DNA of 16,327 bases. It comes from a virus. Its lineage: Duplodnaviria; Heunggongvirae; Uroviricota; Caudoviricetes. The position numbers were made by a program, and so were the translations under genes. The stretch is taken from positions 1 through 16,327 of the IMG/VR virus record IMGVR_UViG_2609459850_000004; one strand, 5' to 3'. The notes below the pieces were generated by a model that saw nothing but the letters and a program-made list of their open reading frames with translations, had not been told where the DNA came from and made no database searches. Below are positions 1,050 to 16,000 of the stretch, piece after piece (within the stretch, counting starts at the first letter, position 1; every line of letters begins with the position of its first letter).

Positions 1050-1982
1050 ATGGACAACGACAAAATTGATCAACACAGCGACGAAATTGAAGTTGAGAGC
1101 GAAGAAAAAGAGCGCGGCAAAAAAATAGAAATAGATGAAGACCGACTCCCCTCCCGGGCGATGGCAATTCATGAGCATATCCGCCAGGATGGTGAAAAAG
1201 AGCTGGAACGCGACGCAATGGCGCTACTGTGGTCAGCCATTGCGGCGGGTCTGTCGATGGGCGCTTCGTTACTGGCAAAAGGGATATTTCAAGTCGAACT
1301 GGAAGGTGTGCCGGGCAGCTTCTTGCTGGAGAATCTCGGTTATACCTTTGGTTTTATTATCGTCATTATGGCCCGCCAGCAATTATTTACCGAAAATACC
1401 GTGACTGCGGTACTACCCGTCATGCAAAAACCGACAATGAGCAACGTCGGCTTACTTATACGGTTATGGGGCGTCGTGCTGCTGGGTAATATTCTCGGGA
1501 CAGGTATTGCGGCGTGGGCATTTGAATATATGCCTATCTTCAATGAAGAAACTCGCGATGCATTTGTCAAAATCGGCATGGATGTGATGAAGAACACCCC
1601 CAGCGAGATGTTTGCCAACGCGATCATTTCCGGCTGGCTGATCGCCACTATGGTTTGGATGTTTCCTGCAGCGGGTGCGGCAAAGATTGTGGTGATTATA
1701 TTGATGACCTGGCTTATTGCCCTGGGTGACACCACCCATATCGTGGTCGGTTCTGTTGAAATCCTCTATCTGGTGTTTAACGGTACGCTGCACTGGAGCG
1801 ATTTCATCTGGCCCTTCGCACTACCTACTTTAGCGGGGAACATCTGCGGCGGCACCTTTATCTTCGCGTTAATGAGTCATGCACAGATTCGTAACGACAT
1901 GAGCAATAAGCGTAAAGCAGAAGCACGCCAAAAAGCAGAACGTGCGGAAAACATTAAGAAAAATTATAAAAACCCGGCATAA
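1050..1982 (+). CDS. yfdC: YfdC inner-membrane protein, formate/nitrite transporter (FNT) family
   Basis: 310-aa ORF with an acidic N-terminus followed by multiple hydrophobic segments. Recognised as E. coli YfdC, which lies between mlaA and argW in E. coli; TAA stop at 1980-1982. Confidence 0.88.
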   Translation: MDNDKIDQHSDEIEVESEEKERGKKIEIDEDRLPSRAMAIHEHIRQDGEKELERDAMALLWSAIAAGLSMGASLLAKGIFQVELEGVPGSFLLENLGYTFGFIIVIMARQQLFTENTVTAVLPVMQKPTMSNVGLLIRLWGVVLLGNILGTGIAAWAFEYMPIFNEETRDAFVKIGMDVMKNTPSEMFANAIISGWLIATMVWMFPAAGAAKIVVIILMTWLIALGDTTHIVVGSVEILYLVFNGTLHWSDFIWPFALPTLAGNICGGTFIFALMSHAQIRNDMSNKRKAEARQKAERAENIKKNYKNPA

Positions 1983-2057: not shown

Positions 2058-2132
2058 GTCCTCTTAGTTAAATGGATATAACGAGCCCCTCCTAAGGGCT
2101 AATTGCAGGTTCGATTCCTGCAGGGGACACCA
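2058..2132 (+). tRNA. argW: tRNA-Arg (anticodon CCU)
   Basis: 75-nt cloverleaf: acceptor stem GTCCTCT/AGGGGAC, anticodon stem AGCCC/GGGCT with loop CTCCTAA (anticodon CCT), T-arm GGTTCGATTCC, discriminator A and encoded CCA at 2130-2132. Confidence 0.93.
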
Positions 2133-2293
2133 TTTATCAGTTCGCTCCCATCCGTACCAGTCCGCAAAATCCCCTGAATATCAAGCCTTCCGTAGATTCA
2201 CAGTTCGTCATGGTCCGCTTCAGATCGTTGACAGCCGCACTCCATGACGGGTAAAAAGTGGATAAAATAATTTTACCCACCGGATTTTTACCC

Positions 2294-3451
2294 ATGCTCA
2301 CCGTTAAGCAGATTGAAGCAGCAAAGCCGAAAGAAAAACCATACCGCCTACTCGATGGTAATGGCCTGTACCTTTATGTCCCTGTGTCAGGGAAAAAGGT
2401 ATGGCAGCTTCGCTACAAGATTGACGGTAAGGAGAAAATCCTGACCGTCGGAAAATATCCGCTAATGACTTTGCAGGAGGCAAGAGATAAAGCATGGACC
2501 GCGAGGAAAGACATCTCGGTTGGCATCGATCCGGTAAAAGCGAAAAAGGCTTCGTCTAACAACAATTCCTTTAGTGCCATTTACAAGGAATGGTACGAGC
2601 ACAAGAAGCAAGTCTGGTCAGTAGGCTATGCAACTGAACTTGCCAAAATGTTTGATGACGACATTTTACCCATCATCGGCGGTCTTGAGATTCAGGATAT
2701 TGAGCCGATGCAACTGCTGGAAGTAATCCGCAGATTTGAAGATCGCGGTGCAATGGAGCGAGCCAACAAAGCCCGCAGAAGATGCGGCGAGGTTTTCCGT
2801 TACGCTATTGTCACCGGCAGGGCTAAATATAACCCGGCACCTGACCTTGCTGACGCCATGAAGGGGTACCGCAAGAAGAACTTCCCGTTTCTTCCTGCAG
2901 ACCAGATCCCGGCATTCAATAAAGCACTGGCAACATTTTCAGGAAGTATCGTATCGCTCATTGCCACCAAGGTTTTACGCTACACTGCCCTAAGAACGAA
3001 AGAGCTTCGTTCCATGCTATGGAAGAACGTCGATTTTGAAAACAGGATTATCACCATCGACGCCAGTGTGATGAAGGGCCGCAAGATTCATGTTGTTCCT
3101 ATGTCAGACCAGGTGGTTGAGCTTCTCACTACGCTAAGCTCCATCACTAAACCAGTCTCAGAGTTTGTTTTTGCCGGGCGCAACGATAAGAAGAAGCCAA
3201 TCTGCGAGAACGCGGTATTGCTTGTGATCAAACAAATCGGCTATGAAGGTCTGGAAAGCGGTCACGGATTCAGGCATGAATTCAGCACGATTATGAACGA
3301 GCACGAATGGCCTGCCGACGCCATTGAAGTGCAACTGGCACATGCCAACGGCGGATCTGTGCGTGGAATTTACAATCATGCTCAGTATCTCGATAAGCGC
3401 AGAGAAATGATGCAGTGGTGGGCGGACTGGCTTGATGAAAAGGTAGAGTGA
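2294..3451 (+). CDS. intS: P4-family tyrosine integrase (IntS-like prophage integrase)
   Basis: ORF directly downstream of the tRNA and reading away from it. N-terminal arm-binding-type region (KPYRLLDGNGLYLYVPVSGKKVWQLRYKIDGKEK), C-terminal catalytic region with conserved R (LRTKELRS), HGFRHEF and a tyrosine (RGIYNHAQY). The ORF track starts at GTG 2258; I prefer ATG 2294 (385 aa) from my recollection of IntS. Confidence 0.9.
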   Translation: MLTVKQIEAAKPKEKPYRLLDGNGLYLYVPVSGKKVWQLRYKIDGKEKILTVGKYPLMTLQEARDKAWTARKDISVGIDPVKAKKASSNNNSFSAIYKEWYEHKKQVWSVGYATELAKMFDDDILPIIGGLEIQDIEPMQLLEVIRRFEDRGAMERANKARRRCGEVFRYAIVTGRAKYNPAPDLADAMKGYRKKNFPFLPADQIPAFNKALATFSGSIVSLIATKVLRYTALRTKELRSMLWKNVDFENRIITIDASVMKGRKIHVVPMSDQVVELLTTLSSITKPVSEFVFAGRNDKKKPICENAVLLVIKQIGYEGLESGHGFRHEFSTIMNEHEWPADAIEVQLAHANGGSVRGIYNHAQYLDKRREMMQWWADWLDEKVE

Positions 3452-3691
3452 GCGACCTTAAACTATCGAATAGCACAAAGCCTTGCAATCCAGTGCAAAG
3501 CTTTGTGCGTATCAGTTTTGTCTGAGTGTTCTACTGAAAACATAGTAAAATCGGTAACAGTTGGAAATCATTCAATACTCGCACTATCAGAAGTTCACCA
3601 GCCAGTCGTAGCCCGTACCTCCGTACGACGTGCTACGGTTTCATTTATCCGGTGCGCCGTAAAACCCCGTCCTTCAGGGCGTGGAGGATGT

Positions 3692-3775
3692 CAACTGGAC
3701 GCACTGGAGCTGGTCGATACTTCCGGTGCGCCAGATATTGAATGGCCTACGCCTCCGGCTGTTCAGGCCAGATGA
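3692..3775 (+). pseudogene. Relic of a second tail-fibre-assembly (Tfa) gene, C-terminal end only
   Basis: Plus-strand translation ends ...QLDALELVDTSGAPDIEWPTPPAVQAR*, the Tfa C-terminal signature (compare the minus-strand Tfa ending VDTSTAPDVIWPEQPEA). The upstream 60 codons of ORF 3503-3775 look like junk. It is convergent with, and overlaps, the 3' end of the intact tfa. Confidence 0.45.
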
Positions 3776-4163
3776 CATCAGGGGCCGTTGACGTATCAAC
3801 GGCTTTCACCGCTTTTTTATGCGCCATCCACTCAGACAATTTCGCTTTATCCTCGTCACTTATATCGCCGAGCATTAATTCACCCCGCCAGTCGGCGGTT
3901 ACTTCGTCAATCTGCTGTAGCCGTTGCTGGCGATATTGTTCTGCCGCCGCTATTTGCTCTTCATGCGTTGGAGGTGGCGCATCGACCCAAGCTGGCAGTC
4001 CAGTGCTATCTGCACCAAGCATTTTACCTTCAGGCCAGGCAATACCAGCAAATTGGCTGTAGAGGTTAACACTGATTTCAATAGCTGATTCAGGAATAAA
4101 CCTGCTTTCAGGTTCAATATAAAATCCGTTATCAACGGCGTCATAAAAGTATCTTTTTTCCAT
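3747..4163 (-). CDS. Phage tail-fibre assembly protein (Tfa, lambda Tfa / P2 gpG / Mu U family)
   Basis: 138 aa; C-terminus KAVKAVDTSTAPDVIWPEQPEA matches the conserved Tfa tail. It follows the fibre gene, with the stop of the fibre gene adjacent to its start. Confidence 0.85.
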   Translation of the reverse strand: MEKRYFYDAVDNGFYIEPESRFIPESAIEISVNLYSQFAGIAWPEGKMLGADSTGLPAWVDAPPPTHEEQIAAAEQYRQQRLQQIDEVTADWRGELMLGDISDEDKAKLSEWMAHKKAVKAVDTSTAPDVIWPEQPEA

Positions 4164-4164
4164 G

Positions 4165-4878
4165 TTAATAACCTATTGCCAATAAACAACCGGCAGCTTG
4201 AGCAGCCGTCCATGAAGTCCCATTAACTGTTCCTAAAGCACGAACTTTGACTGTCGTTCTGGTAGAGCCATTAATATCGAAGCCCCACGTTGTGCCGGAC
4301 GATCCATTCCACGAGCTAGCAGAAGCACCTGAGTCAATCGCAGTGGCATGAAGCAGAGCGTTAGGAAATGCTATAGGTAATGTAACGGTTGCTAATCCAG
4401 TCGAATCGGCAACAAATCCAGAGACCCACTGGAAAATGATATTTTGTTCAACCCCATCAATTAAAGCCGGGATCAATATTCTCCCGGTATTACCAGTTAC
4501 CCCTACAGCAGCGCCAAGTTTTGCCGCTTCTCCCAAACCAAGATTTTCGAGAGCCGTTTCCACCGTGCCGTCCGATTTGATATCGCCAAACGGATTCTTG
4601 CGGCTCAGGTATTCAACAGCAAACCCCGATCCCAGCAATTCAACAAAACCGGGCAGATCACCATTATCAAGCACATCCCGTTGCGTTTTGTCACTTACAA
4701 ACTGGGCCAGAGCTGCAGCAATAAAGCTGGCCTGCCGAATAACCTTATTGACTTGCGCACTGGATGCTTTACCTGCTGTAAATCCGGATAAAAGCGCGGG
4801 CAACGCTTCCCATTCCTCCTGCGATATAACATTGGCACTTCGATCCGTTGCAAACGCTTTAAAGTCATTTTTCGCCAT
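4165..4878 (-). CDS. Phage tail-fibre protein (short; gpH / Mu S position)
   Basis: Position between the gpI-like gene and tfa. Start ATG at 4878 overlaps the stop of the upstream gene (TGATG); the track's alternative start is 4896. Gly/Ser/Thr-rich C-terminal half typical of fibre distal domains. Assignment is by synteny plus composition. Confidence 0.65.
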   Translation of the reverse strand: MAKNDFKAFATDRSANVISQEEWEALPALLSGFTAGKASSAQVNKVIRQASFIAAALAQFVSDKTQRDVLDNGDLPGFVELLGSGFAVEYLSRKNPFGDIKSDGTVETALENLGLGEAAKLGAAVGVTGNTGRILIPALIDGVEQNIIFQWVSGFVADSTGLATVTLPIAFPNALLHATAIDSGASASSWNGSSGTTWGFDINGSTRTTVKVRALGTVNGTSWTAAQAAGCLLAIGY

Positions 4879-5558
4879 CAGAGTAATACTCCCCATGCTC
4901 CTACATCAAAACCACTGATGAATTCGTTATCTATATCAAAACCAAAAAATTTTGAGCCTTCCGATGGGGTTTCCACCGAAGGTGTTTCAATGCCTCCCGC
5001 CCATACCCCGGCGGCTTTTACTGTGAGATACCCCTGTTTAATTGCCGCAATTAACTCACGCGATACATCTGAAATATCAGTATCAGGAAAGACCCAGACC
5101 GATATCGTCATGTCCTGGTTATCGACTATCTGCATTCGCAGTCCGGATCCTGCTGTCGCCGCGTCAAGAATTACCGGAAGCGAATCATTCCGTCCGTCCC
5201 AGTTATTAATCGCAATCTTCGCTTTAAGAATGACACGATAAGTTTCATCGCTGAGATACATGTATCCAGAATCAGGATCATATGGCCCCTGCCATACCCC
5301 CTGATCATATCCAATCCCGTCGGCATCCCAGCTGAAATAGACACCTGAGATAGGCTGGCTGACAACACGGCTGCGTCCGATCCACAATCCAAGAATGTCA
5401 AGTTGCACACCAACCGCAGAGTCAATATCAAATGCAGTAATCAGCCCTCTGGTGGCAGCCGCAACATCAATAAGCGGCCGGGTCATCAGATCAACATGTG
5501 CAAGAAATTTAGGTTTGGTGGCGTGATAGTTTGTGATTAGTTCGGTGTATTTGCTCAT
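4878..5558 (-). CDS. Baseplate protein, P2 gpI / Mu gp48-like (DUF2313/YmfQ-like)
   Basis: 226 aa; ATGA start/stop overlap with the J-like gene; synteny J-I-fibre. Family recognised from memory. Confidence 0.65.
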   Translation of the reverse strand: MSKYTELITNYHATKPKFLAHVDLMTRPLIDVAAATRGLITAFDIDSAVGVQLDILGLWIGRSRVVSQPISGVYFSWDADGIGYDQGVWQGPYDPDSGYMYLSDETYRVILKAKIAINNWDGRNDSLPVILDAATAGSGLRMQIVDNQDMTISVWVFPDTDISDVSRELIAAIKQGYLTVKAAGVWAGGIETPSVETPSEGSKFFGFDIDNEFISGFDVGAWGVLL

Positions 5559-6754
5559 GACTCCACCGTTATAACGATATTTTCCGGGGTACAGGACGCA
5601 GATTCGTTATATCTGATATCAATGTTTGATGACGACAAAGCCCCAGGGGATTTCCCAATCGTCAGTTCCTGAATATCGTAATAGCGTGCATTCCCGCCAC
5701 TCACCACGCCAAGATTCGCCGGTGAGTAAATGCGACTTAAAAGGACCGAATCACCAATCATCAGACTATTGATATAGTCGGAAATAGCCGGCTGGATCTG
5801 CTGCCCTATCTGTGAGGTATAACCCGTAAAAACTTTTAATTTAATCCGGGCATAAACAGGCACATCACTGGAACGCGAGAATTTGATTACATGGGGATTG
5901 CCGTATTTATCCGGAACCGTAACGGATGTTGTACCGTGAGTGGCTGTACCCTGGCCTTTATTCCCTCTAATAGCCTGAGCAATATCCGTCACATCACCGC
6001 CATCCACAATTACAGCAACAGAGTGTGGCGGTAACCCGTTACCGTCCTCCGAACCAGTATCGTTTTCATAGAGTTTGTGGCGGGTTACACCGGTAACATT
6101 AGAAACAGCACCATCCAGTGCTTCAAATGGGGTTATTGATGGCAACGCAACACTTTGCGACTGGCGGATACGTAACTCCGCATCAGTTTCTGCTGGAGTG
6201 CCTACAGTAGCTGCAGCAGGATTGGTTACCGAAACCCAGCCACGGGTCGGTGTGTTAATGGTGGTAATAGTCCCGGCCATCGCCGCAACCGAACCGCTAT
6301 TCGCACATGTGGCCGTCACCAGCACAGTACCATCAACCCCGATTGCTACACTCGCGGGAAAATTCCAGATAATGCCGTTTTTATCCCGTGCGGAGCCATT
6401 CGTGATAGTCGTGCCAGCCGTACCGGTTAACAGAAGGTCAGCAGTAGAGTTTGTTGCTACTTTTCGCGTGATCCCGTTAATTTTCACATTGCTGCTAAGC
6501 GCTGCGGCCTGCGCTGTCGTCGGTGAAAACGAGTTGTAGATCTCGATAGCGGTATTGTTAGCATCATGCACAGCCAGAGCCACCAGCGCGACCATTTGCC
6601 CATCTTTGCTGTCTGGTTCGAGGTAGGCATCACTACCGTAAATCTGCCTGAAATAGCTGGTCAGTGTATCGAGGATTGTCTGGTAATCAGGCGCACTAAT
6701 CCCCTGGGCGGTTACCGTTGCCGATAGCCCCAGCGTGTCGAGGTTCAAAGCCAT
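5555..6754 (-). CDS. Baseplate J-like protein (P2 gpJ / Mu gp47 family)
   Basis: 399 aa; size and position between the W-like and I-like genes, with translational coupling on both sides. Confidence 0.75.
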   Translation of the reverse strand: MALNLDTLGLSATVTAQGISAPDYQTILDTLTSYFRQIYGSDAYLEPDSKDGQMVALVALAVHDANNTAIEIYNSFSPTTAQAAALSSNVKINGITRKVATNSTADLLLTGTAGTTITNGSARDKNGIIWNFPASVAIGVDGTVLVTATCANSGSVAAMAGTITTINTPTRGWVSVTNPAAATVGTPAETDAELRIRQSQSVALPSITPFEALDGAVSNVTGVTRHKLYENDTGSEDGNGLPPHSVAVIVDGGDVTDIAQAIRGNKGQGTATHGTTSVTVPDKYGNPHVIKFSRSSDVPVYARIKLKVFTGYTSQIGQQIQPAISDYINSLMIGDSVLLSRIYSPANLGVVSGGNARYYDIQELTIGKSPGALSSSNIDIRYNESASCTPENIVITVES

Positions 6755-7108
6755 TTATGCCTCGCTTGTTACAGTCGTCTGGCCGTAGATTGTGTCAATG
6801 GAGGAAGTGAAAGTGACGCGTCGGCTGTTGCCGTCATAATTGGTATCGAAGGAAAGAATCGACAGAACGCCCGGCGTGTCCTGTATGCGTTCGCGTATAG
6901 CCAGGATGTAGACGTCTGATCGCTGTTTCCCAAGCACTGACTGAACATACGGCGTACCTTCCGTCAGATCGAGAAACCACTGACCGCGCCACAGCTCGAA
7001 ACGGGTTTTTACGGCCTGGGCGACACACTCCGGACTGTCTATAAGGAAGGTGTCGTCACCCTGCCCGAAAGTGTAATCACCGTCAGCATCTTCTCGTCGG
7101 TATCGCAT
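6755..7108 (-). CDS. Small baseplate protein, gpW / gp25 / Mu gp46-like
   Basis: 117 aa; sits between the V-like and J-like genes and its start overlaps the V stop (TAATG). Assignment mainly by size and synteny. Confidence 0.5.
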   Translation of the reverse strand: MRYRREDADGDYTFGQGDDTFLIDSPECVAQAVKTRFELWRGQWFLDLTEGTPYVQSVLGKQRSDVYILAIRERIQDTPGVLSILSFDTNYDGNSRRVTFTSSIDTIYGQTTVTSEA

Positions 7109-7848
7109 TATTGCGGCCCTCCAGTAGTCCCCCCGCCTGTCTGAACTCCGCCATGTTTATGCGTGGCGACACTTATACCTGAAGCTGTCACATCATTCGT
7201 TACCGTAACCGGCCCAAGCATCGTCGCAGTACCACCACTTTCTCCCATTCCCTGAGACAGGTTACCGTTAATCGTTACGTTGCCGTTCAGCGTGATGGTC
7301 GGGGATGTGATTGTCGTTCCACCTTCAGCCGTAGCCGTAAGCTGGCCCGGCGTTTTAATGGTGATGTTATGTCCTGCAGCGACCTCTACGAACGCCGCAC
7401 CATCATCGGTTCGCAGCTGCGCGGCGCTGGTGCTGATACCACTGATTTTCTGTGCTTGCGACTGCGGGCCAACGATGGCGAACGCATCAGATAAGTCATG
7501 CTGGCGCGGGTCGACGGTCTCCTGAACGCCGCCGCTCTGCCACCAAAAATCAATGCAACGGTCGGCAAAGATCAGCAGGCACTCGTCGCCTTCTTTTACC
7601 GGAAAGGTCAGCGTGCAACCGCCGCCGCGCGGGAAGATAACCGGCACATCCACCAGCGGTTTTAATTCGGTGGAGCCATCGCCAACAATACCGCGAAGCG
7701 CCACTTCTACTGTGCAGGTTACAGCGTCAGGATCGAACGACTGAATGATGCCAGGCATCGCCACGCGCATTTGGGTAGACACTGAATCGGCAATGGCCTG
7801 CGCGGTCTGCTGCTCACCGCCGATCTGTGATTGAGTTGGAATTGGCAT
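7108..7848 (-). CDS. Baseplate spike/hub protein (P2 gpV / Mu gp45 family)
   Basis: 246 aa; C-terminus ...ATHKHGGVQTGGGTTGGPQ matches the gpV apex motif (P2 gpV ends HTHKHPGDSGGTTGSPL) and N-terminal ...MPGIIQSFDPDAVTCTVEV resembles the gpV OB-fold start. An internal Met (MRVAMPGII) could be the true start. Confidence 0.8.
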   Translation of the reverse strand: MPIPTQSQIGGEQQTAQAIADSVSTQMRVAMPGIIQSFDPDAVTCTVEVALRGIVGDGSTELKPLVDVPVIFPRGGGCTLTFPVKEGDECLLIFADRCIDFWWQSGGVQETVDPRQHDLSDAFAIVGPQSQAQKISGISTSAAQLRTDDGAAFVEVAAGHNITIKTPGQLTATAEGGTTITSPTITLNGNVTINGNLSQGMGESGGTATMLGPVTVTNDVTASGISVATHKHGGVQTGGGTTGGPQ

Positions 7849-7858
7849 AAAAACCCCA

Positions 7859-7882
7859 TAAAAAAACCAGCCGAAGCTGGTT
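7859..7882 (-). terminator. Rho-independent terminator-like hairpin (minus-strand sense)
   Basis: Stem AACCAGC (7865-7871), loop CGAA, stem GCTGGTT (7876-7882), preceded on the plus strand by A7, which is a T-run after the hairpin on the minus strand. Lies about 10 nt upstream of the gpV-like start. Confidence 0.4.
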
Positions 7883-8059
7883 TGGTATCAATTACTAAGC
7901 TACATCAGTGTGAAGTAAGGCTTTTCCGCTGCAATGGCACACATTCACAAGGTGTATTAGGATATGTTTGCAACAAGTAAGCATTAAAAATCAATTTCAG
8001 CCATGAAGCCGCCATAGAGTGGACCTGCACCATCGCATTCTTGACTACAGGAGTAACAA

Positions 8060-8350
8060 ATGGGATTTAGATTTCGCAAAAGAATCCGGATTGCGCCCGG
8101 ACTCGCGATCAACATTAGCAAAAGCGGAGTAAGCACTTCGATTGGTGGTAAAGGTTCCACCATTAACATCGGGAAAAAAGGCGTAAAGATGACAAATGGC
8201 CTTCCCGGCACTGGGCTGTCGCATACCACTAACCTTTACTCTCCCGGAAAATCGACAGAAAAAAAACAACTTACTCATAAGCAAAAAATAATTAGAAACA
8301 TCCTGTTCGTAATTATTGTGTTTATTATAATTAAAGCTCAATATTTTTGA
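8060..8350 (+). CDS. Small DUF4236-like protein with C-terminal transmembrane helix
   Basis: 96 aa; RBS AGGAG at 8049-8053 with 6-nt spacer. N-terminus MGFRFRKRIRIAPGLAINISKSGVSTSIGGKG...PGTGLSHT matches the DUF4236 pattern as I remember it; C-terminal ILFVIIVFIIIKA is hydrophobic. AT-rich. Confidence 0.6.
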   Translation: MGFRFRKRIRIAPGLAINISKSGVSTSIGGKGSTINIGKKGVKMTNGLPGTGLSHTTNLYSPGKSTEKKQLTHKQKIIRNILFVIIVFIIIKAQYF

Positions 8351-8355
8351 CGCAT

Positions 8356-8386
8356 GCCCGCCTATCTGGCGGGCTATTTTACTTTT
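8356..8386 (+). terminator. Rho-independent terminator between convergent genes
   Basis: Perfect 7-bp stem GCCCGCC (8356-8362) / GGCGGGC (8368-8374), loop TATCT, then T-rich TATTTTACTTTT. The lipoprotein stop codon lies inside the stem. Confidence 0.6.
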
Positions 8387-9264
8387 CGGCAGTCGTATGT
8401 TGCATACTGTCGCGGCGCATCCATGCTGGCTTGTACCCACTGAGCGTTTAGGATGGCTTTTCCTTTACGTTTAATGTATTCAATACCAACCCAACGACCG
8501 GGCAGACTGGTAGCAACCATCCACTCCATTTTTATATTATCCGGTTCGTTGTTAGTGCTGCCACCAGCACCGATGGGAGTAATTTTTTGCGTCTCTGGTT
8601 TCGCGCCATTAATTCTGGCCCAGCCATCAGCAGAGGAAAGATCTATCCTATACGGTCCACAAACTATTATGTAATTGATGCCAAGTTTTTCGTTGCTGCG
8701 AGCTTTCCTGCTTTTCTCATAATCTTCCTTCGCAACATCATTCATCTTTTGATAGATAGCAGGTTGTTTTAAAGAAAACTCATTCAGCTTCTTAATAAAG
8801 TTTTCTCGCGGAACCTCTGCAAGCCCCATAGATTTTCTATCAAGGATATAGTCATCATATATCTTTGACACAACAGAAAGTGATGACAGTTTTTTAGCTA
8901 AATCATTTGCAAAGTTTAGATAATTAAGTGGTGAGTTGTCTCTTATATCAATAGCTCTAACTCCACCTGTACCGTATTCATGATAAGCAGCATAAAAAAC
9001 AGGTATACTTTCAGGTTTTTTGTTAATCGCTTTAATTAGTCCTTCTGGACCGCAAGACTCTCCACTCCAGTCAATAAGCGACTTCCCTTTCGATTTCCAT
9101 GTTTGGCAATCATCAGCTGATAAAATTAAAATTGGCTGCCACCCCGGGCGTTTTTTGTAACTAACATTCTTATCAGAATTGAAGCCTGCATTTGCGCATC
9201 CAGAAACGAGCAGCACCGACAGGAAAATCACACTGTATCGAAGTCCATTCATGTTCTTATACAC
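8374..9264 (-). CDS. Lipoprotein of unknown function
   Basis: 296 aa; signal peptide with lipobox LLVSGC; strong RBS AGGAGGAGG upstream of the GTG start at 9264 (alternative ATG at 9252). AT-rich compared with neighbours. Confidence 0.65.
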   Translation of the reverse strand: MYKNMNGLRYSVIFLSVLLVSGCANAGFNSDKNVSYKKRPGWQPILILSADDCQTWKSKGKSLIDWSGESCGPEGLIKAINKKPESIPVFYAAYHEYGTGGVRAIDIRDNSPLNYLNFANDLAKKLSSLSVVSKIYDDYILDRKSMGLAEVPRENFIKKLNEFSLKQPAIYQKMNDVAKEDYEKSRKARSNEKLGINYIIVCGPYRIDLSSADGWARINGAKPETQKITPIGAGGSTNNEPDNIKMEWMVATSLPGRWVGIEYIKRKGKAILNAQWVQASMDAPRQYATYDCRKVK

Positions 9265-9308
9265 TCAACCTCCTCCTGAACGAGCTATAGTCGCCTGGCT
9301 AATCAGAT

Positions 9309-9322
9309 GGCACTGTTGCAAA
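9309..9322. repeat. IS26 terminal inverted repeat (14 bp)
   Basis: GGCACTGTTGCAAA, the perfect reverse complement of 10115-10128. Confidence 0.95.
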
Positions 9323-9360
9323 GTTAGCGATGAGGCAGCCTTTTGTCTTATTCAAAGGCC

Positions 9361-10065
9361 TTACATTTCAAAAACTCTGCTTACCAGGCGCATTTCGCCC
9401 AGGGGATCACCATAATAAAATGCTGAGGCCTGGCCTTTGCGTAGTGCACGCATCACCTCAATACCTTTGATGGTGGCGTAAGCCGTCTTCATGGATTTAA
9501 ATCCCAGCGTGGCGTTGATTATCCGTTTCAGTTTGCCATGATCGCATTCAATCACGTTGTTCCGGTACTTAATCTGTCGGTGTTCAACGTCAGACGGGCA
9601 CCGGCCTTCGCGTTTGAGCAGAGCAAGCGCGCGACCATAGGCGGGCGCTTTATCCGTGTTGATGAATCGCGGGATCTGCCACTTCTTCACGTTGTTGAGG
9701 ATTTTACCCAGAAACCGGTATGCAGCTTTGCTGTTACGACGGGAGGAGAGATAAAAATCGACAGTGCGGCCCCGGCTGTCGACGGCCCGGTACAGATACG
9801 CCCAGCGGCCATTGACCTTCACGTAGGTTTCATCCATGTGCCACGGGCAAAGATCGGAAGGGTTACGCCAGTACCAGCGCAGCCGTTTTTCCATTTCAGG
9901 CGCATAACGCTGAACCCAGCTGTCAATCGTGGAGTGATCGACATTCACTCCGCGTTCAGCCAGCATCTCCTGCAGCTCACGGTAACTGATGCCGTATTTG
10001 CAGTACCAGCGTACGGCCCACAGAATGATGTCACGCTGAAAATGCCGGCCTTTGAATGGGTTCAT
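9361..10065 (-). CDS. tnp26: IS26 transposase Tnp26 (DDE, IS6 family)
   Basis: Translation MNPFKGRHFQRDIILWAVRWYCKYGISYRELQEMLAERGVNVDHSTI...GDPLGEMRLVSRVFEM recognised as Tnp26. ATG at 10065 lies 64 bp inside the element end; the track ORF begins at an upstream TTG (10083). Confidence 0.95.
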   Translation of the reverse strand: MNPFKGRHFQRDIILWAVRWYCKYGISYRELQEMLAERGVNVDHSTIDSWVQRYAPEMEKRLRWYWRNPSDLCPWHMDETYVKVNGRWAYLYRAVDSRGRTVDFYLSSRRNSKAAYRFLGKILNNVKKWQIPRFINTDKAPAYGRALALLKREGRCPSDVEHRQIKYRNNVIECDHGKLKRIINATLGFKSMKTAYATIKGIEVMRALRKGQASAFYYGDPLGEMRLVSRVFEM

Positions 10066-10114
10066 GTGCAGCTCCATCAGCAAAAGGGGATGATAAGTTT
10101 ATCACCACCGACTA

Positions 10115-10128
10115 TTTGCAACAGTGCC
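10115..10128. repeat. IS26 terminal inverted repeat (14 bp)
   Basis: TTTGCAACAGTGCC, the perfect reverse complement of 9309-9322. Confidence 0.95.
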
Positions 10129-10154
10129 CGTGCAGTTAAGCAGAGGGCTGAATA

Positions 10155-11306
10155 ATGGTGAACGAGAGACGAGATTATGAGGTTAATTTCCTGTACTACC
10201 CGGAAGTGTTCGCTGCGGCTCTGTCGCGTGTTGAACCAGACACGTCAGTCCTGGGCTGGCTGGGCCAGGCTCGCGCTCTGGCGTGCTGGTGTGAGCTGCT
10301 GAGGCTCGACCCACTGGAGACCTGTGTGGAGTGGTCTGCGCGTGGTGTGAACGCGGGTAAGGCCGACAGGGCAATGTTAGCGTCGGCGCTGCGTGACCTG
10401 GATGACCTCGACCGGCTGGCGGCGGCTGGGGCGTTCCTGCGCTCCTCCGGGGTGGCTGCTGACGTTGCTGCCGGGCGCATCGCTGTTCGTGAGCCCACCG
10501 AGGACGAGCTGGCTGCTCGTCAGGCGCATCTGGTTGCACTACGGGAACGTGCGGCTGCTGCTGCGGCGAAGCTGACGGAGGCTCGCATTAAGGCAACCGG
10601 TAGGGCGCGGATGCTGCTGCATCGCGCCAAAAAGCCGGGGAATGCGGCGCTGTACTGGAAGGCCAAGGAGCGAGCTGCGGAGCGTTTGCTGCCGTGCCCT
10701 GACGACGTGAAGTGCTCGGACTGGAGCACGTTCCTGCCGGTGCTGGGTCGCGTGTGGTGGAATGAGTCGCTTCTGGTGCCGCTGTACGGGGTGAACGAGT
10801 CACTACGGTTGGAGTGTATGTCAGTGGAGGTGATTTGCGGTCGCGCCAACCCTGAGGCGGCAGGTTCGCTGGGCGAGAAGCGTGGCCTCGAGAATGCACC
10901 GCGTGAGGGGCTGTTTTACCCGTTCGACCTGTCCAGCGTCCGTTCTGGTAACCCTCTGGTCATCTGCGAGGGGTTCATGTCGGGGCTGGCGCTCTCTCTG
11001 CTGATGGGCGGCAAGCTGCCGGTGATCTGCGCGATGTCGGTGGGTAACTTCGGGGCGACAGTGCAGACGCTGAATAAGTTTGTTATGGGTGACTCCCCGT
11101 TCGTACTGGTACCGGACATTGGCGGGCAGGATCTGGCTATCGATCAGGCTATCCCGAATGCCCGGGTGATCGACCTGTCGGCGGTACCGGGAGCCGAGGG
11201 CGTGGACGGCTACGACCCGTTCGATCTGCTGGCGCGTCATGGTGTCGAGATGGGACGTAAGTATCTGCGGAGCTTGTTTCGTGAGGCGCGTGACGCGAGC
11301 CTGTAG
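10155..11306 (+). CDS. Toprim-like domain protein (primase-related?), high GC
   Basis: 383 aa; RBS GAGGG 7 nt upstream of the ATG. C-terminal half carries NPLVICEGFMSGLALSLL...PVICAMSVGNFGATVQ...FVLVPDIGGQDLAIDQ, resembling Toprim motifs (DnaG-like EGxxD...DxD region). The Ala/Arg-rich N-terminal half is unrecognised. In-frame stop at 10149-10151 shows the ORF is not truncated by IS26. Confidence 0.55.
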   Translation: MVNERRDYEVNFLYYPEVFAAALSRVEPDTSVLGWLGQARALACWCELLRLDPLETCVEWSARGVNAGKADRAMLASALRDLDDLDRLAAAGAFLRSSGVAADVAAGRIAVREPTEDELAARQAHLVALRERAAAAAAKLTEARIKATGRARMLLHRAKKPGNAALYWKAKERAAERLLPCPDDVKCSDWSTFLPVLGRVWWNESLLVPLYGVNESLRLECMSVEVICGRANPEAAGSLGEKRGLENAPREGLFYPFDLSSVRSGNPLVICEGFMSGLALSLLMGGKLPVICAMSVGNFGATVQTLNKFVMGDSPFVLVPDIGGQDLAIDQAIPNARVIDLSAVPGAEGVDGYDPFDLLARHGVEMGRKYLRSLFREARDASL

Positions 11307-11337
11307 TGGTACCAGGTTTCTCTCTCTCGTTGTTCTC

Positions 11338-11363
11338 AGCCCGCTTCGGCGGGCTTTTATTTG
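11338..11363 (+). terminator. Rho-independent terminator
   Basis: Stem AGCCCGC / GCGGGCT with TTCG tetraloop, followed by TTTTATTTG; 32 nt after the stop at 11306. Confidence 0.6.
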
Positions 11364-11374
11364 AGGATCTCCCC

Positions 11375-11680
11375 ATGACCGACCAGACCACCACCATCGC
11401 CGACCTGGCGCTCTCACAATCCGCGTTTCTCGTCTCTCAGGCTGTCGTTGAGCTGGACGCCATGTTCGGCGAGGGCTATGCCGCTGCTCACCCGGCTGTG
11501 CTGGCTCAATTCCTGCAGACGGCGGGGGTCATCTTCGCCACACAGCTGCAGGCTTCTGCCGCGTTCGACCTTGCCTCGCAGCTCGACCGCCTGATTGGCT
11601 TGGGGCTGGCTTGCTGCAAGCCAATCAGGGTGCCTCGCACTAAAACGCCGGGGCCGGCTGCGATCAGTCCTTTGCTATGA
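11375..11680 (+). CDS. Hypothetical small protein (101 aa)
   Basis: ATG at 11375 preceded by GAGGA at 7-nt spacing, immediately after the terminator. Ala/Leu-rich with no recognisable motif. The track ORF begins upstream at 11306 without an RBS. Confidence 0.45.
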   Translation: MTDQTTTIADLALSQSAFLVSQAVVELDAMFGEGYAAAHPAVLAQFLQTAGVIFATQLQASAAFDLASQLDRLIGLGLACCKPIRVPRTKTPGPAAISPLL

Positions 11681-11828
11681 GGCGACGCCCCAGGGGTTCG
11701 CCCCTGATCAGCTGGAGTCCGTAGACCGGACGTCTGATGCCCGGTGGCGGGCGTTCTACCTCGCCAGCTATGGCTACTGCCTCGAGTACGCGGGGTTTTG
11801 ACCTGGGCGGCGGCTGCCGCGCTACCGG

Positions 11829-12356
11829 TTACTTCAGGTCAGGCATCCGGCGGGTGATCACCGTGTTGATGCGGTCGTTGTTCCATGGGCGACCGTTCGA
11901 CTGCAGGAGCCCTGCCTCGTTCAGCGCCTGGGCGATAGCTTTGTTGTCGTAGCGGAATCCCCGATCGCGCTGCTCCTCCCTCATGCGCCGTATGGTGGCC
12001 ATCACCTCGGCCTCGTCGTAATGCCCCGAAAATTCAGCGCCAGCGGGGCGCTGTGCTGCGTTTTGTGTTTCAGATGAGTTACTAGTCAGCTTTTCAGCCC
12101 GTGGCCTTGTAGCGCGTCCTGTTGGCTTCTGTAGCACATTGTGTTTCAGCGTATTCGAGATGTCCTGCAGCAGCTCCACCATCAGGTCGAGGCGGTTGCC
12201 GCTCTCCCCCTGCGGCTCTGGTATGCCAAGGTATGCACGGAGTGCGTCGGTAATCACGTCGGTGCGGGTACGGTTCGTTTTCTCGGCCAGCTCGTTCGTC
12301 TGCTCGAGCAGGTCGGCGGGGAGACGTAGGCTGAATGTCGGGCTTTTGCGCTGCAT
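11829..12356 (-). CDS. Ribbon-helix-helix DNA-binding protein with recombinase-like C-terminal domain
   Basis: 175 aa from ATG 12356, with AGGAG-containing RBS. N-terminus MQRKSPTFSLRLPADLLEQTNELAEKTNRTRTDVITDALRAYL is a typical RHH (CopG/Arc-like) segment. C-terminus EVMATIRRMREEQRDRGFRYDNKAIAQALNEAGLLQSNGRPWNNDRINTVI resembles the recombinase-family DNA-binding domain pattern (IA..LN..G....G..W....V..I). No serine-recombinase catalytic domain is present. Confidence 0.55.
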   Translation of the reverse strand: MQRKSPTFSLRLPADLLEQTNELAEKTNRTRTDVITDALRAYLGIPEPQGESGNRLDLMVELLQDISNTLKHNVLQKPTGRATRPRAEKLTSNSSETQNAAQRPAGAEFSGHYDEAEVMATIRRMREEQRDRGFRYDNKAIAQALNEAGLLQSNGRPWNNDRINTVITRRMPDLK

Positions 12357-12860
12357 CCGTGTTGCTCCTGTGTGGTCTGGTGCCACCGATTGAAACACGT
12401 TTGTAACTTCTCGTCTATTTCGACGTGTTGCGCTTGTGCTGCATAACCGGTACGGGTCGAGCCCTTCGGCTCGACTCTCTGGTGCCAGTGGACAAGCCCT
12501 GTGGACAATTTGCCGTGTCAGTGAATAAATGCGTGGCGCGATCACGACAGCTCGATAAGCGGTCGCCGTTCAGTGGCGTGAAGGGTTAGGATCGGTTAAG
12601 CTGATCGTCGTTCGTGGATTATGTTGGGTGATCTGCGGGCACAAAAAAAGCACCTGGCCGGGTGCTTTGATTGCCGGGGTTAAACCCCGTAGTTTCGAGT
12701 CAGTGTCTTGACGGACGTACTCGAAGGAAATCATACATCACGTTGGGTGATTCTCAAATCCTCGCTGAGAATTGTATCACGTCGATAAGATCGTGCAAGT
12801 CGATTTCCTCCGTAATCCCCCGCCTGACGCCGACTCCTACGTTTTTAAAGGAGTTGTAAC

Positions 12861-14420
12861 GTGCCAAAAACTAAACAAGAAATAGCCACTGTAACGCCGA
12901 TCACCGCTGCACCGTCACCGCTGTCGCTAAAATTGGGCGATGCGCTGTTTTCTGTCTTGTCGGTGTCTGCGGACTGGTCTGGTGACTACCGCGCTCAATT
13001 CGAGCTGTATGGCCTGAATGTAAAAGCTATCAACTCTGCCGTCGGCACTGCCGTCTGGCACGCTGGCAAGGGGCGGTTCCTCTCTGTCCTAAATGGCTCC
13101 CTGACCGAGTTCGATAAGGGCGACGGAATGAAGCTGCTGGAGGACTCCTGCGGCAAGTTCTGGCACCGCACCGATGCGTTTATCGCCCGCCTGACTGACC
13201 TCAAAATCAAGACCGACGACAAGGTAACCAAGGCGTGTATCGATATGGCTCGGGCTGTTCGTCAGGCGGGGGCTGAGTTCATCATGCTGCGCCGTCAGGT
13301 GGCAGTCGTTCGCCTCGACGTGGACATGTTCGCCACGGCTCCTCGCGTCGAACTGGTGGGTGAAACTGTGACGTTCGTCCGTCCTCATGCTCCCTATCCG
13401 GTGGCTAATGCCGACAGTGACGTGGTGGCTGATTGGCTGGTTCATTTCCCTCAATGCCATGAGTTCCTCGACGCGCTGGTTGCAGCCCGCTTTGCCTCAA
13501 GCCGTAAGAATGCCTACCTGTTTTTCCGTGCGCAGTCCGATTGGGGTAAGGGGCTGCTGTTTGGTGCTGGCGGCGTTCTGTCACGCCTGGGAGCGACGGT
13601 GGAGCTGTCCGAGGGGGAGCTGCTCAACATCCTGAGCGGTGCCAACTCCGGTGTAACGGCTAGTCACTTCATGGGGGCGCTGGCGCTGATCGTCAACGAA
13701 TGCACCAGGGTGACGAAAAAGCACTTTCGTCTTGAGGAGTCGCTGGCTCTGACGCCGAAGTACCTCACGACGCAGTGCGTGAACCTGTACATGAAAATTT
13801 TCACCAGTGCCGACCCGATCCCCGGACTGTCCGACTCCGACGGAATTGACCCGCAGGTGGCGAACCGCTTTTCTATGCTCGATCTGCAGGGCGACATCAA
13901 GACGCGCCCGCTGTTCCTGTCCGACAAGGGACGCTATGTCGACAGCCTGACGTCGTTCTTTGCCGCCGAGCTGAATGCCAGGGTGGCGTCCTATCAGGCT
14001 AAGGGCTTTGAGACCGCTCGCCGCGATGCCGACCATGTTCTGGCTGCTTTCACCACTGCGCATGGGTTGGCGAATGCTGCCGGGCTGATCACCGACGCGT
14101 ATGACGAAATTCGGGCTGAGTGGGTGGCGTTCGTCCATGGGCGTGTTGCTGATGGGCACCCGGACTTCCTCACCTTCGAATCAAAGGCTGGTTTGGTTCT
14201 CCGCTCTCCTGTCGGATGCTGGGGTAAGTTCCTCGACTGGTACGTGGACAAAAGCGAACCGCTGCGCCGTGCTCGCCTGATGCATGACCGCGATCTGATC
14301 ATCGGCTGCGCGAAAAAATACCGCGATGTTGGTGGCGCTGCTGAAGGCAAGGGGGTGCTCATCCCGTTCGTGTCCGGCTCGATGCCCGACAACGTCCACC
14401 GGTTCCGGTACAAAAATTGA
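12861..14420 (+). CDS. Hypothetical 519-aa protein, candidate replication-associated (unrecognised family)
   Basis: Long high-GC ORF with GTG start preceded by AAGGAG at 7-nt spacing, followed by a strong terminator and an iteron array. No family recognised; the replication role is inferred from context only. Confidence 0.65.
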   Translation: MPKTKQEIATVTPITAAPSPLSLKLGDALFSVLSVSADWSGDYRAQFELYGLNVKAINSAVGTAVWHAGKGRFLSVLNGSLTEFDKGDGMKLLEDSCGKFWHRTDAFIARLTDLKIKTDDKVTKACIDMARAVRQAGAEFIMLRRQVAVVRLDVDMFATAPRVELVGETVTFVRPHAPYPVANADSDVVADWLVHFPQCHEFLDALVAARFASSRKNAYLFFRAQSDWGKGLLFGAGGVLSRLGATVELSEGELLNILSGANSGVTASHFMGALALIVNECTRVTKKHFRLEESLALTPKYLTTQCVNLYMKIFTSADPIPGLSDSDGIDPQVANRFSMLDLQGDIKTRPLFLSDKGRYVDSLTSFFAAELNARVASYQAKGFETARRDADHVLAAFTTAHGLANAAGLITDAYDEIRAEWVAFVHGRVADGHPDFLTFESKAGLVLRSPVGCWGKFLDWYVDKSEPLRRARLMHDRDLIIGCAKKYRDVGGAAEGKGVLIPFVSGSMPDNVHRFRYKN

Positions 14421-14426
14421 ACAATA

Positions 14427-14448
14427 ACCCGCTTCGGCGGGTTTTTTT
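14427..14448 (+). terminator. Rho-independent terminator
   Basis: Stem ACCCGC / GCGGGT with TTCG loop followed by T7 (14442-14448); 7 nt after the TGA at 14418-14420. Confidence 0.7.
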
Positions 14449-14454
14449 ATGGCT

Positions 14455-14535
14455 TGGAACCTCGCTGGAACCTCGCTGGAACCTCACTGGAACCTTCTTA
14501 AACCCGCGCCATTGCTGGTTGGAACCTTTGGAACC
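14455..14535 (+). repeat. Direct iteron-like array of heptamer TGGAACC
   Basis: TGGAACC at 14455, 14466, 14477 and 14488 (exact 11-bp period, unit CTGGAACCTCG), plus two more copies at 14520 and 14529. Confidence 0.8.
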
Positions 14536-14606
14536 TGATTTTCTAACCTTCTCTCTCCAATAACGAAAGCTCTCTCAATTTCCCTGATTACTCTTTTTAA
14601 AAAATA

Positions 14607-14696
14607 GGTTCCAAGGTTCCATCGTTGATTTTAAAAGATTTTTTAAGGTTCCAATGCGGTTCCAAGGCGGTTCCACAAGGTTCCAAGGCGGTTCCA
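14607..14696 (-). repeat. Inverted-orientation array of the same heptamer (GGTTCCA)
   Basis: GGTTCCA at 14607, 14615, 14647, 14658, 14669, 14679 and 14690 (10-11-bp period in the last five, unit GCGGTTCCAAG). Separated from the direct array by an AT-rich spacer (14536-14606). Confidence 0.8.
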
Positions 14697-15565
14697 GCTC
14701 AATTCCTGCGCAGTTGACGCGCCGCAGCTGCACCCCGTTGGGGATGCACTTTGCGTGTCGTGTTTGGATCTGGTGTCGCTCTCCCCGGTGCGTGGTTTGC
14801 ACCTGCCGGATCTCCAGCTAAAAAAGCCCGGAGGGAAATGGGGGCAGTTTCCAGTGCTGGCGGGGGTTGGCGGGTGGTTTATGCACGGTGGATCGTGGTT
14901 GGCACCGTGCATTGGTGTTTGGCGGCAATCGCCGCGCCTACCGGTTTGCCAAATCCTGCCCCAACTTTCAGGGGGTACAGGGGCTTAAATGGGGTGCTGT
15001 CGTGTCGTTGGGTTGGTTCGGGGTTGAGGCGCTTAGAATGGCTCTGGTGCGTTCTGGTGGGGGCGTGCTTTCTAACCGGTAGGGGCGCAGCTGTCGCCGC
15101 GCTCCTGGTTGGGGTTAGCGCCAGCGTTCGAGCCGGTACCTGACAGTGATCCCGTTCTTCGACATGGTGTGGACGTAGTCCGGGTTTTTCAGCGTGAGGT
15201 CGATCGCCTTGGTGCGGTGCGTCTTGTATTTGTACCGGGCTTCCTCGGGGAAGTTCTCGCCTGTGACCATCTCATCCCATGACTCTGTTCACAGCGTATG
15301 CCATGCCGAGCGTACTGCGGAAGACAACGCCACGCTGTTGAAGCAAGTCAGCTTCTTAGACAAGCGTGTGACTGTATTGTCGGAGCAGCTGAAGCAGTTC
15401 GGGAACCTCTACAAGCAGAACAGGAGTTAAGACGGCAGAAGAACGAGAACGCTCAAGAGCTGACAAAGTCGGCACCAAAAATCGCCCCTGTGGCATTCAA
15501 GAAGAGATCAGGCCCTGATTATGGGCCTAGCATGTAATGCCAGGATGAATTGCTCTCTGTGCCTT

Positions 15566-15973
15566 TTACAATTCATCTTTTTGTAAAAAACTAAGAAATA
15601 CAGGCAAAATTTCTTCTTGCATGAAAGCTGCTTCCATTTGAGTTGTCGGTAAGGAAGCCGCTCTTTGAGCGAGTTTCAAACAAACTATTTTTAACGCACC
15701 CAAACAATCTTCTCCTTGAATAACAAGGCTATTTTCAGAAGAATAATTTTTCATGAAAGTTAGGGTTGAATGCAATGCCACTGCTTCTGGCATAAGCCGT
15801 TTCCCTTTGTGTTTTGCAAAAACATCGGGCATGGCACGGTACTGATTTATTATTATGACGTGCGCTAAATCAGGCACTTGTAGTTTAAAAAGATTAGGTA
15901 AAAGGCGAAGCTCAGTATCAACAATGGTTTCCACTTTAGAAATATAAAAAATTTCAGCAATGCCACTGAACAT
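15566..15973 (-). CDS. Hypothetical protein (135 aa), low GC
   Basis: ATG at 15973 with GGAGG RBS at 5-nt spacing; 27 nt downstream of the preceding gene on the same strand (operon-like). No motif recognised. Confidence 0.55.
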   Translation of the reverse strand: MFSGIAEIFYISKVETIVDTELRLLPNLFKLQVPDLAHVIIINQYRAMPDVFAKHKGKRLMPEAVALHSTLTFMKNYSSENSLVIQGEDCLGALKIVCLKLAQRAASLPTTQMEAAFMQEEILPVFLSFLQKDEL

Positions 15974-16000
15974 ATCGCCCTCCGGTTACAGTCAAAACTA

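Follow-up and report, generated by a model that had tools for sequence, protein, structure and literature searches.

Why should two markedly AT-rich genes, one of them reading against the surrounding operon, lie in the middle of the baseplate genes of a tailed phage? The question is raised by the IMG/VR record IMGVR_UViG_2609459850_000004 (Caudoviricetes), the first 16,327 nucleotides (nt) of which constitute the window analysed here. Within it, two open reading frames (ORFs) converge, one on the plus strand encoding a small protein with a DUF4236 domain (8060-8350) and the other on the minus strand encoding a putative lipoprotein (8374-9264). A previous sequence-only reading had recognised this convergent arrangement and described it as a cargo pair carried beside a prophage remnant, with a shared terminator and envelope-targeting signals, hypothetically devoted to superinfection exclusion or defence. 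That observation is partly confirmed here and its interpretation is partly supported. We propose, with a probability of roughly 0.55, that the two genes belong to an accessory ("moron") slot composed of a constant exported-protein gene and an exchangeable DUF4236 cassette, and that each protein likely interferes with phage entry at the envelope.

The position of the genes is best appreciated in intact relatives. In the prophages L001, L002, L003 and L013, the order is hub, lipoprotein gene, DUF4236 gene and V, and the whole tail module runs from a tape measure bearing an SLT domain through a baseplate protein, a plug, the hub (355 residues, phrog_196), the lipoprotein gene and the DUF4236 gene (on the opposite strand) to V, W and J. 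The identity of V is given by an identical protein in L001, annotated by the NCBI Prokaryotic Genome Annotation Pipeline (PGAP) as "phage baseplate assembly protein V", and by orthologs with an Apex domain. The prophages are of the type represented by Salmonella phage SEN34 (Brunovirus). SEN34 is a myovirus, temperate and equipped with regulatory genes like those of lambda, and its description does not discuss the lipoprotein or DUF4236 genes. Hence, both genes lie within the baseplate module of a SEN34-like myovirus prophage at argW, in the interval between hub and V, and not merely beside a prophage remnant as had been suggested. The segment 7850-9308 is 100% identical in three complete Escherichia coli chromosomes and 88% identical in a fourth, while what 15 further genomes have in common with the window is limited to the DUF4236 gene and ~55 codons at the end of the lipoprotein gene; strains carrying both genes come from animals and food.

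The window itself represents a damaged version of this arrangement. The 100% match to L001, L013 and FJ_Ec_21 stops at position 9308, exactly at the end of an IS26 copy whose terminal repeats GGCACTGTTGCAAA are found at 9309 and 10115-10128. No 8-bp target duplication is seen when the IS26 flanks are compared (AATCAGAT versus CGTGCAGT). Since the match ends at IS26, only 44 nt of the hub gene are left and no duplication is present, the prophage is a remnant made by IS26, which removed all that lay upstream, and both genes are original parts of it. To the right of IS26, the DNA has a GC content of 60-67% and matches small enterobacterial plasmids. The joining of a prophage remnant to plasmid-like DNA by an IS26 without duplication suggests an IS26-mediated deletion or cointegration.

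Two scans of IMG/VR delimit the interval between hub and V, hereafter the hub-V slot. The first one, anchored on the C-terminal beta-barrel domain of the lipoprotein, returned at least 556 contigs with a relative, the best 80 of which were analysed; the second one, anchored on the hub gene, yielded 76 loci with enough sequence. The barrel gene is adjacent to the hub in 79 of the 80 barrel-anchored loci, with V seen downstream in 75. In the hub-anchored set it lies next to the hub in 72 loci, ten of them with the long form present in the window, and the other four carry a different lipoprotein in the same place. An exported-protein gene therefore abuts the hub in 76/76 loci. Thus, the lipoprotein gene does not behave as mobile cargo; it is a fixed component that opens the slot directly at the hub stop codon.

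What follows this constant gene is variable. The distance between the end of the barrel gene and V ranges from 35 to 1714 nt (barrel-anchored loci) and, apart from DUF4236, the cargo falls into 29 clusters, including several small secreted and several membrane proteins. Among the cargo there is also a Fic/DOC toxin (E 1.5e-11) with a Phd-like partner lying just under the Pfam cut-off (Phd/Doc-type pair in L065, 3847-4254; L089, 3404-3835; L034, 3427-3675), and in the Klebsiella phage ST405-OXA48phi1.2 the slot holds a zinc-ribbon/tRNA_anti-like protein. The cargo that was checked against PADLOC gave only weak candidate matches for the Doc protein and no validated defence system. The slot has a GC content of 40-44% in each of the ten lineages checked. 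In the window, the DUF4236 gene (39.5%) and the lipoprotein gene (41.0%) are indeed AT-rich relative to phage and core genes, with 50-57% in V, W and J and 52% in mlaA; by part, the lipoprotein gene has 37.9% in its N-terminal and 46.9% in its C-terminal portion. The conserved design is, consequently, hub, exported protein, variable cargo, terminator and V. Morons have been defined by a deviant GC content together with a promoter and a terminator of their own, and antisense placement is typical of prophage accessory loci (PMC3594210; PMC7067206). Of the features in the Juhala/Hendrix definition of a moron, the slot shows the extra, variable DNA between conserved genes and the deviant base composition, and the DUF4236 gene has its own terminator.

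One explanation of this arrangement is that the two genes form a single two-component system, for instance a toxin-immunity couple or a defence system, in which each gene requires the other. They are adjacent and convergent, their stop codons lie 23 nt apart in all DUF4236-bearing loci, with the same junction wherever both occur, and they are also found together in the distant Klebsiella phages RCIP0034 and GZ7. In addition, DUF4236 is present in 7/10 hub-anchored loci with the long form versus 15/66 of the others. This enrichment is not independent evidence, because it comes from near-identical phages (hubs 98-100% identical). On the other hand, DUF4236 occurs, always antisense, in just 19 of the 80 barrel-anchored loci and in 22 of the 76 hub-anchored ones, leaving 61 and 54, respectively, without it. 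Long forms in Dickeya, Serratia-like and other contigs lack DUF4236 and have other neighbours or none, and DUF4236 occurs in lambdoid and other phages that have no barrel gene. Moreover, the genes are on opposite strands with separate signals, and no PADLOC match was obtained for either of them. We therefore regard an obligate two-component system as very unlikely: the lipoprotein and DUF4236 genes are independent of each other. Of the cargo pair initially envisaged, accessory-type genes in a variable AT-rich slot stand and the functional pair does not.

The separate signals are most evident at the terminators. The intergenic hairpin GCCCGCC-TATCT-GGCGGGC (8356-8374), whose right arm overlaps the lipoprotein stop codon, is followed by a T-rich tail, TATTTTACTT, on the plus strand only; on the minus strand it is followed by ATGCGTCAAAAATA, with no T-tail. 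It therefore terminates the DUF4236 transcript alone, instead of being shared by both genes. The only terminator on the strand of the lipoprotein gene is the one that closes the slot (7883-7857), a hairpin AAACCAGC-TTCG-GCTGGTTT followed by seven T. Its end and the ATG of V are separated by 8 nt, and its T-tail extends into the ribosome-binding site of V (GGGG). In 75/75 related loci that include the start of V, the ATG is directly preceded by a GC-rich hairpin with seven or eight T and ATGGRGTTTTTATG after it, and the stems vary by compensation between loci (CCAGC/GCTGG, CCCGC/GCGGG, GCCGC/GCGGC). Late transcription must read through this terminator, antitermination being one possible mechanism. 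Upstream of the DUF4236 gene, the block ACATTCACAAGGTGTATTAGGATATGTTTGCAACAA and the stretch TACAGGAG beside the ribosome-binding site are conserved in ten sequence variants and in the Klebsiella phage RCIP0034. An Rfam search for non-coding RNA gave far sub-threshold matches only.

The lipoprotein gene requires a more careful consideration, given that the long form is mis-annotated in RefSeq/PGAP as a pseudogene fragment or as a 123-residue protein. PGAP records 288 nt as "incomplete; missing N-terminus" in strains SY3626 and E89 (L001, 9525-9812; L013, 12290-12577), and calls only 123 residues in EC2001 (L002, 9497-9868). Taken at face value, these calls would mean that the long ORF is not a gene and that its last ~96 codons are the relic of a short phage gene. 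Such a reading is contradicted already and is extremely improbable. The 296 codons stay open in DNA of 38-41% GC, and EC2001, at 88% nucleotide identity, also has the frame uninterrupted. Full-length homologs form 23 clusters at 40-100% identity from Serratia, Dickeya, Pectobacteriaceae and metagenomes. Against the 88%-identical L002 ortholog, the ratio of nonsynonymous to synonymous substitution rates (dN/dS) is 0.107 overall, 0.093 in the N-terminal part and 0.086 in the C-terminal part. AlphaFold2 predicts an all-helical domain with a predicted local distance difference test (pLDDT) score >90, followed by a beta-rich domain (overall pLDDT 81.6). Together with the start at the hub stop codon that recurs in L008-L011 (Dickeya and metagenomic contigs), these features indicate that the full frame is a real gene. 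As for its start, the protein would have 296 residues from the GTG at 9264 or 292 from the ATG at 9252. A strong Shine-Dalgarno sequence, AGGAGGAGG (9277-9269), lies inside the hub remnant 4 nt before the GTG, and the hub stop TGA (9267-9265) abuts it, making GTG the probable start; it also fits the N-terminal length of the homologs.

The N-terminus displays the lipobox that had been pointed out previously: MYKNMNGLRYSVIFLSVLLVSG|C, that is, LVSG|C with Cys23 and Ala at +2, fits the [LVI][ASTVI][GAS]C rule and follows a hydrophobic core with a Kyte-Doolittle maximum of 2.13 (window from residue 12). The lipobox Cys is kept in 21/23 homologs. With Ala at +2, the protein is presumably sorted to the outer membrane, according to sequence rules. 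The usual gene after the hub in relatives is simpler, encoding a ~114-residue short form with a Sec signal peptide (AxA cleavage motif) and two Cys, one right after the cleavage site and the other near the C-terminus; the Sec signal and both Cys are found in all short forms. The window allele contains the short-form domain as its C-terminal third, to which a lipobox and ~170 extra residues are added. Consistent with this, residues 196-292 match positions 23-114 of the 115 in the phrog_3443 profile (E 3.2e-34), and the short form of strain S1 matches positions 2-114 (E 3.1e-45). The N-terminal 195 residues fall outside phrog_3443, so the helical domain and the lipobox are not part of that family. 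The beta-barrel domain has a conserved Cys near both ends, and the helical domain has a conserved Cys pair and the motifs RPGW, DDCxT, FYAAYHxYG and IYxDYxxD.

The helical domain is seldom encountered: a search of 1.84 billion representatives gave only 20 clusters (50% identity), none of them with a Pfam domain. Most of these clusters correspond to lipoproteins of 350-374 residues with a different C-terminal domain. One relative with the helical N-domain, the 355-residue lipoprotein P0023, adjoins the integrase of a P4-like element (L106-L108, 4124-12655) that carries a Zn-ribbon/Toprim/DUF927 primase and seems to have entered another phage immediately behind a shortened major-capsid gene. The different lipoprotein that follows the hub in four loci has ~241 residues (L118; L125; L148, 4070-4795; L188, 4068-4796), and its C-terminal part resembles, by eye, the C-terminal domain of the 350-374-residue lipoproteins. 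These combinations suggest domain shuffling among the exported proteins at the post-hub position. An SLT or lysozyme-like nature of the helical domain was considered on account of the motifs GLIxxIN and AAYHEYG, and was rejected: the candidate catalytic Glu is not conserved, and there is neither a Pfam SLT match nor a match to a lysozyme-like fold. Homology and structure searches, which the sequence-only reading had proposed as a check, place the lipoprotein in no known fold or family beyond phrog_3443. It has no match in Pfam (E <= 1) or NCBIfam, and nothing at E <= 0.001 was found by Foldseek against the Protein Data Bank (PDB) and BFVD. Profile sequence searches of the lipoprotein, its barrel and the DUF4236 protein against the PDB gave chance-level matches only.

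The second gene is a genuine DUF4236 member (PF14020; 73.6 bits versus a cut-off of 27, E 1.8e-20), with residues 3-55 covering positions 1-54 of the 55 in the profile. The protein consists of a basic domain (residues 1-55), a low-complexity linker and a C-terminal anchor (~77-93). Residues 1-60 have a net charge of +10 and, as noticed earlier, a C-terminal hydrophobic helix is present (15-residue Kyte-Doolittle maximum of 3.05, window from residue 77). The gene is under constraint (dN/dS of 0.045 versus the L002 ortholog). Its homologs form 192 clusters. On alignment, the 55-residue domain is highly conserved, the linker is variable and the C-terminal anchor is always there. Relatives from Vibrio and Photobacterium carry an SH3_3 domain after the anchor which, along with the basic N-terminus, suggests that the N-terminus faces in and the C-terminus out. 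The DUF4236 domain is thus probably cytoplasmic and held by a C-terminal membrane anchor. Accordingly, envelope targeting applies to the lipobox of the lipoprotein and to the anchor of the DUF4236 protein and not to the basic domain of the latter. The one paper found to mention DUF4236 records it as a hypothetical, unexplained prophage-remnant protein.

The gene is antisense to the tail operon, and similar genes encoding DUF4236 plus the anchor recur in the tail modules of unrelated temperate phages. They are found antisense between tape measure and gpM in Leclercia, between gpK and gpI in Pseudomonas syringae, between tail chaperone and tape measure in another siphovirus, and in the same hub-V slot in a Hafnia prophage (coordinates of DUF4236 in four loci: L097, 5001-5276; L094, 5001-5294; L104, 5001-5276; L100, 5001-5324).

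How might these proteins act? The anatomy of the slot, the conservation of both genes and their independence are established by the comparisons described above. An AT-rich, variable slot that houses Phd/Doc and small envelope proteins in the same place makes exclusion or defence the most reasonable reading. A role in superinfection exclusion is the most likely one by analogy, in view of the export and membrane signals, the position in the tail operon, the diversification by domain shuffling and the toxin-antitoxin company. According to this model, the lipoprotein gene, which is the constant first gene of the slot, is present in the window as a rare long allele that combines a helical domain with a probably disulfide-stapled beta-barrel, and its product would work from the periplasm, countering the incoming tail tip or its SLT lysin much as Llp, Cor or Spackle do. 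The DUF4236 gene is an independent, exchangeable cassette with its own ribosome-binding site and terminator, encoding a predicted small inner-membrane protein that would act there like HK97 gp15 or P22 SieA. Finally, the conserved terminator before V would keep slot transcription out of the baseplate genes. The locus is, in this sense, an ordinary example of prophage morons encoding envelope proteins, a familiar kind.

Several known systems can be compared with these candidates. T5 Llp and the Cor proteins of phi80, N15 and HK022 are phage envelope proteins or lipoproteins that inactivate the receptor FhuA. Like them, the window lipoprotein is a phage envelope protein encoded among tail genes, predicted to reside in the outer membrane and to bear conserved disulfide-forming Cys. 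Unlike them, it is larger (296 residues, two domains) and its gene is placed beside hub and spike genes and not beside a receptor-binding protein gene. No similarity to Llp or Cor was found in Pfam (E <= 1), by PDB sequence search or by Foldseek against PDB and BFVD (E <= 0.001). T4 Spackle (Sp) is a periplasmic inhibitor of the gp5 tail lysozyme. The exported post-hub protein is likewise a predicted secreted phage protein, whose long form has an additional helical domain that is predicted to be periplasmic, and SEN34-like phages also carry a tail-borne cell-wall hydrolase, the SLT domain of their tape measure. No similarity to Spackle was detected in the lipoprotein, and inhibition of the SLT domain would be pure conjecture. 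P2 and P4 hotspots are accessory and defence hotspots of temperate phages and satellites. They share with the hub-V slot a fixed position between conserved genes and a variable AT-rich content including toxin-antitoxin genes, whereas the hub-V slot differs from them in lying inside a baseplate operon, in having one constant exported-protein gene and in its conserved closing terminator. A precedent for DUF4236 is HK97 gp15, an inner-membrane exclusion protein that blocks genome injection and whose gene 15 is the founding moron; Cor is cited in the same work (PMC3594210). The DUF4236 protein is likewise predicted to be a small single-pass inner-membrane protein, encoded by a unit of deviant composition in a tail operon, and one relative lies in the interval between chaperone and tape measure, which is the position of gene 15. 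On the other hand, gp15 is YebO-like, no sequence relationship with DUF4236 was seen, the anchor is C-terminal in DUF4236, and no promoter was identified for the DUF4236 gene. Neither of the two families that were matched, phrog_3443 and Pfam DUF4236, has an assigned function.

Four points weigh against an exclusion role. First, scanning for sigma-70 promoters revealed no consensus site ahead of the lipoprotein or the DUF4236 gene, and the region contains as many sites as chance alone would give. Second, in the window, the lipoprotein gene has lost its natural upstream DNA, so that it would be transcribed only via read-through from the IS26 transposase gene, which is on the minus strand and reads toward it. 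A hybrid promoter at this junction was considered and discarded: the IS26 end provides a -35 element (TTGCAA), but no acceptable -10 is found at 16-18 nt. Third, the signal peptide, lipidation, sorting and topology have all been deduced by applying sequence rules. Fourth, a near-universal lipoprotein gene that abuts the hub fits a late lytic role equally. The DUF4236 protein, the long lipoprotein and the short form have no match in PADLOC-DB v2 at E <= 1.

The last of these four points leads to a serious rival, to which we nevertheless assign a clearly minor share of the probability, namely, that the post-hub exported protein mainly serves the phage's own lytic cycle, being made late with the tail proteins, and is not a factor of lysogenic conversion. 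It could shield progeny from inactivation on debris, tune the wall around the tail lysin or aid release. In favour of this possibility, the start codon abuts the hub stop in every lineage, an exported-protein gene is invariably found in the post-hub position of the hub-anchored loci, the scans gave no promoter for the lipoprotein gene, and the SLT lytic transglycosylase domain of the tape measure is a possible periplasmic partner. Moreover, T5 Llp has a dual role in exclusion and in the protection of progeny. Conversely, the lipoprotein gene is AT-rich like the cargo. Its domains are shuffled or replaced between close phages, which is commoner in conflict genes than in morphogenesis genes, and the N-domain is also found on a P4-like element without tail genes. 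The terminator of V, in turn, would permit transcription of the slot without the downstream baseplate genes.

A further alternative is lysogenic conversion: both proteins might help the host with something other than phages, for instance by conferring serum resistance, adhesion or tolerance to envelope stress. Lambda Bor and Lom are examples of such host-benefit proteins. The sequence rule based on Ala at +2 predicts an outer-membrane lipoprotein, and the animal and food origin of the carrier strains would suit this explanation; in fact, morons with such roles are well documented (PMC3594210). Nonetheless, the lipoprotein has no similarity to Bor, Lom, TraT or any Pfam family, and the short forms are predicted to be soluble periplasmic proteins and not surface proteins. 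Furthermore, a gene tied to one tail type across many host genera points to a function directed at phages rather than at a host niche. A host benefit of this kind is thus improbable.

Returning to interference with phage entry, a broader formulation can be advanced tentatively, and we consider it doubtful as a whole. The post-hub exported proteins, assembled from shuffled modules (Sec signal or lipobox, helical domain, beta-barrel, alternative C-terminal domain), might constitute a fast-diversifying family and a new class of periplasmic exclusion proteins directed against the incoming spike, hub or SLT-bearing tape measure. Separately, tail-anchored DUF4236 proteins might be morons of tail modules that are widespread but have gone unrecognised, and might stop DNA from crossing the inner membrane in the manner of HK97 gp15. 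Should the proposed functions be borne out, the locus offers two candidates, inexpensive to test, for phage exclusion at the envelope of E. coli and related bacteria. One is DUF4236, with hundreds of homologs and no assigned function, recurrent in the tail operons of unrelated temperate phages; the other belongs to an exported-protein family present in essentially every SEN34-like prophage. The hotspot formed by hub, exported protein, cargo, terminator and V could also be mined for new defence genes. Further by-products of the analysis are the recognition of a conserved lipoprotein family that annotation has misread, of a baseplate hotspot closed by a conserved terminator, and of the recurring link between DUF4236 and tail modules. 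The features of the window are collected in Table 1.

Table 1. Features of the window, in order of position.
Feature	Position	Strand	Remarks
mlaA	1-756	-	52% GC
yfdC	1050-1982		
argW, tRNA-Arg(CCT)	2058-2132		
IntS-type integrase	2258-3451		
Tail-fibre assembly gene	3747-4163	-	Tail end of the prophage
Fibre gene	4165-4896	-	
DUF2612 wedge gene	4878-5558	-	
Baseplate J	5555-6754	-	50.2% GC
W-like sheath initiator	6755-7108	-	53.4% GC
Baseplate spike gene V	7108-7848	-	56.8% GC; downstream border of the slot
Slot-closing intrinsic terminator	7857-7883	-	Hairpin scan
Region upstream of DUF4236 gene	7884-8059	+	Ribosome-binding site AGGAG at 8050-8054
DUF4236 gene, 96 residues	8060-8350	+	Pfam, hydropathy, dN/dS
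DUF4236 intrinsic terminator	8356-8384	+	7 G-C pairs, loop TATCT, tail TATTTTACTT
Lipoprotein gene, 296 residues	8374-9264	-	ORF, homologs, dN/dS; predicted outer-membrane sorting
Lipoprotein C-terminal small beta-barrel domain (phrog_3443)	8383-8670	-	
Lipoprotein all-helical N-terminal domain, ~residues 34-189	8698-9165	-	
Lipoprotein signal peptide and lipobox	9196-9264	-	Read from sequence
Hub gene remainder, last 44 nt	9265-9308	-	Stop TGA at 9267-9265
IS26, 820 bp	9309-10128	- (transposase)	Terminal repeats, DDE_Tnp_IS240 domain

Some additional observations concern the rest of the window. Over 4.9 kb, the DNA adjoining IS26 (10129-16327) is 100% identical to NZ_CP145712, an E. coli plasmid of 33 kb; it also resembles plasmids of 12-18 kb that encode an RHH protein and unknown proteins. 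In strain E89, the closest intact relative at argW, an IS1A and an acyltransferase gene lie between the integrase and the tail genes (L013, 6691-8472); both are missing from the window (3452-3750). Finally, a 90-residue ORF on the plus strand (3503-3775) stands opposite the intact fibre-assembly gene and weakly matches the end portion of the tail-fibre assembly family, below the cut-off (E 0.001); it may be the leftover of an invertible or duplicated fibre-assembly cassette.

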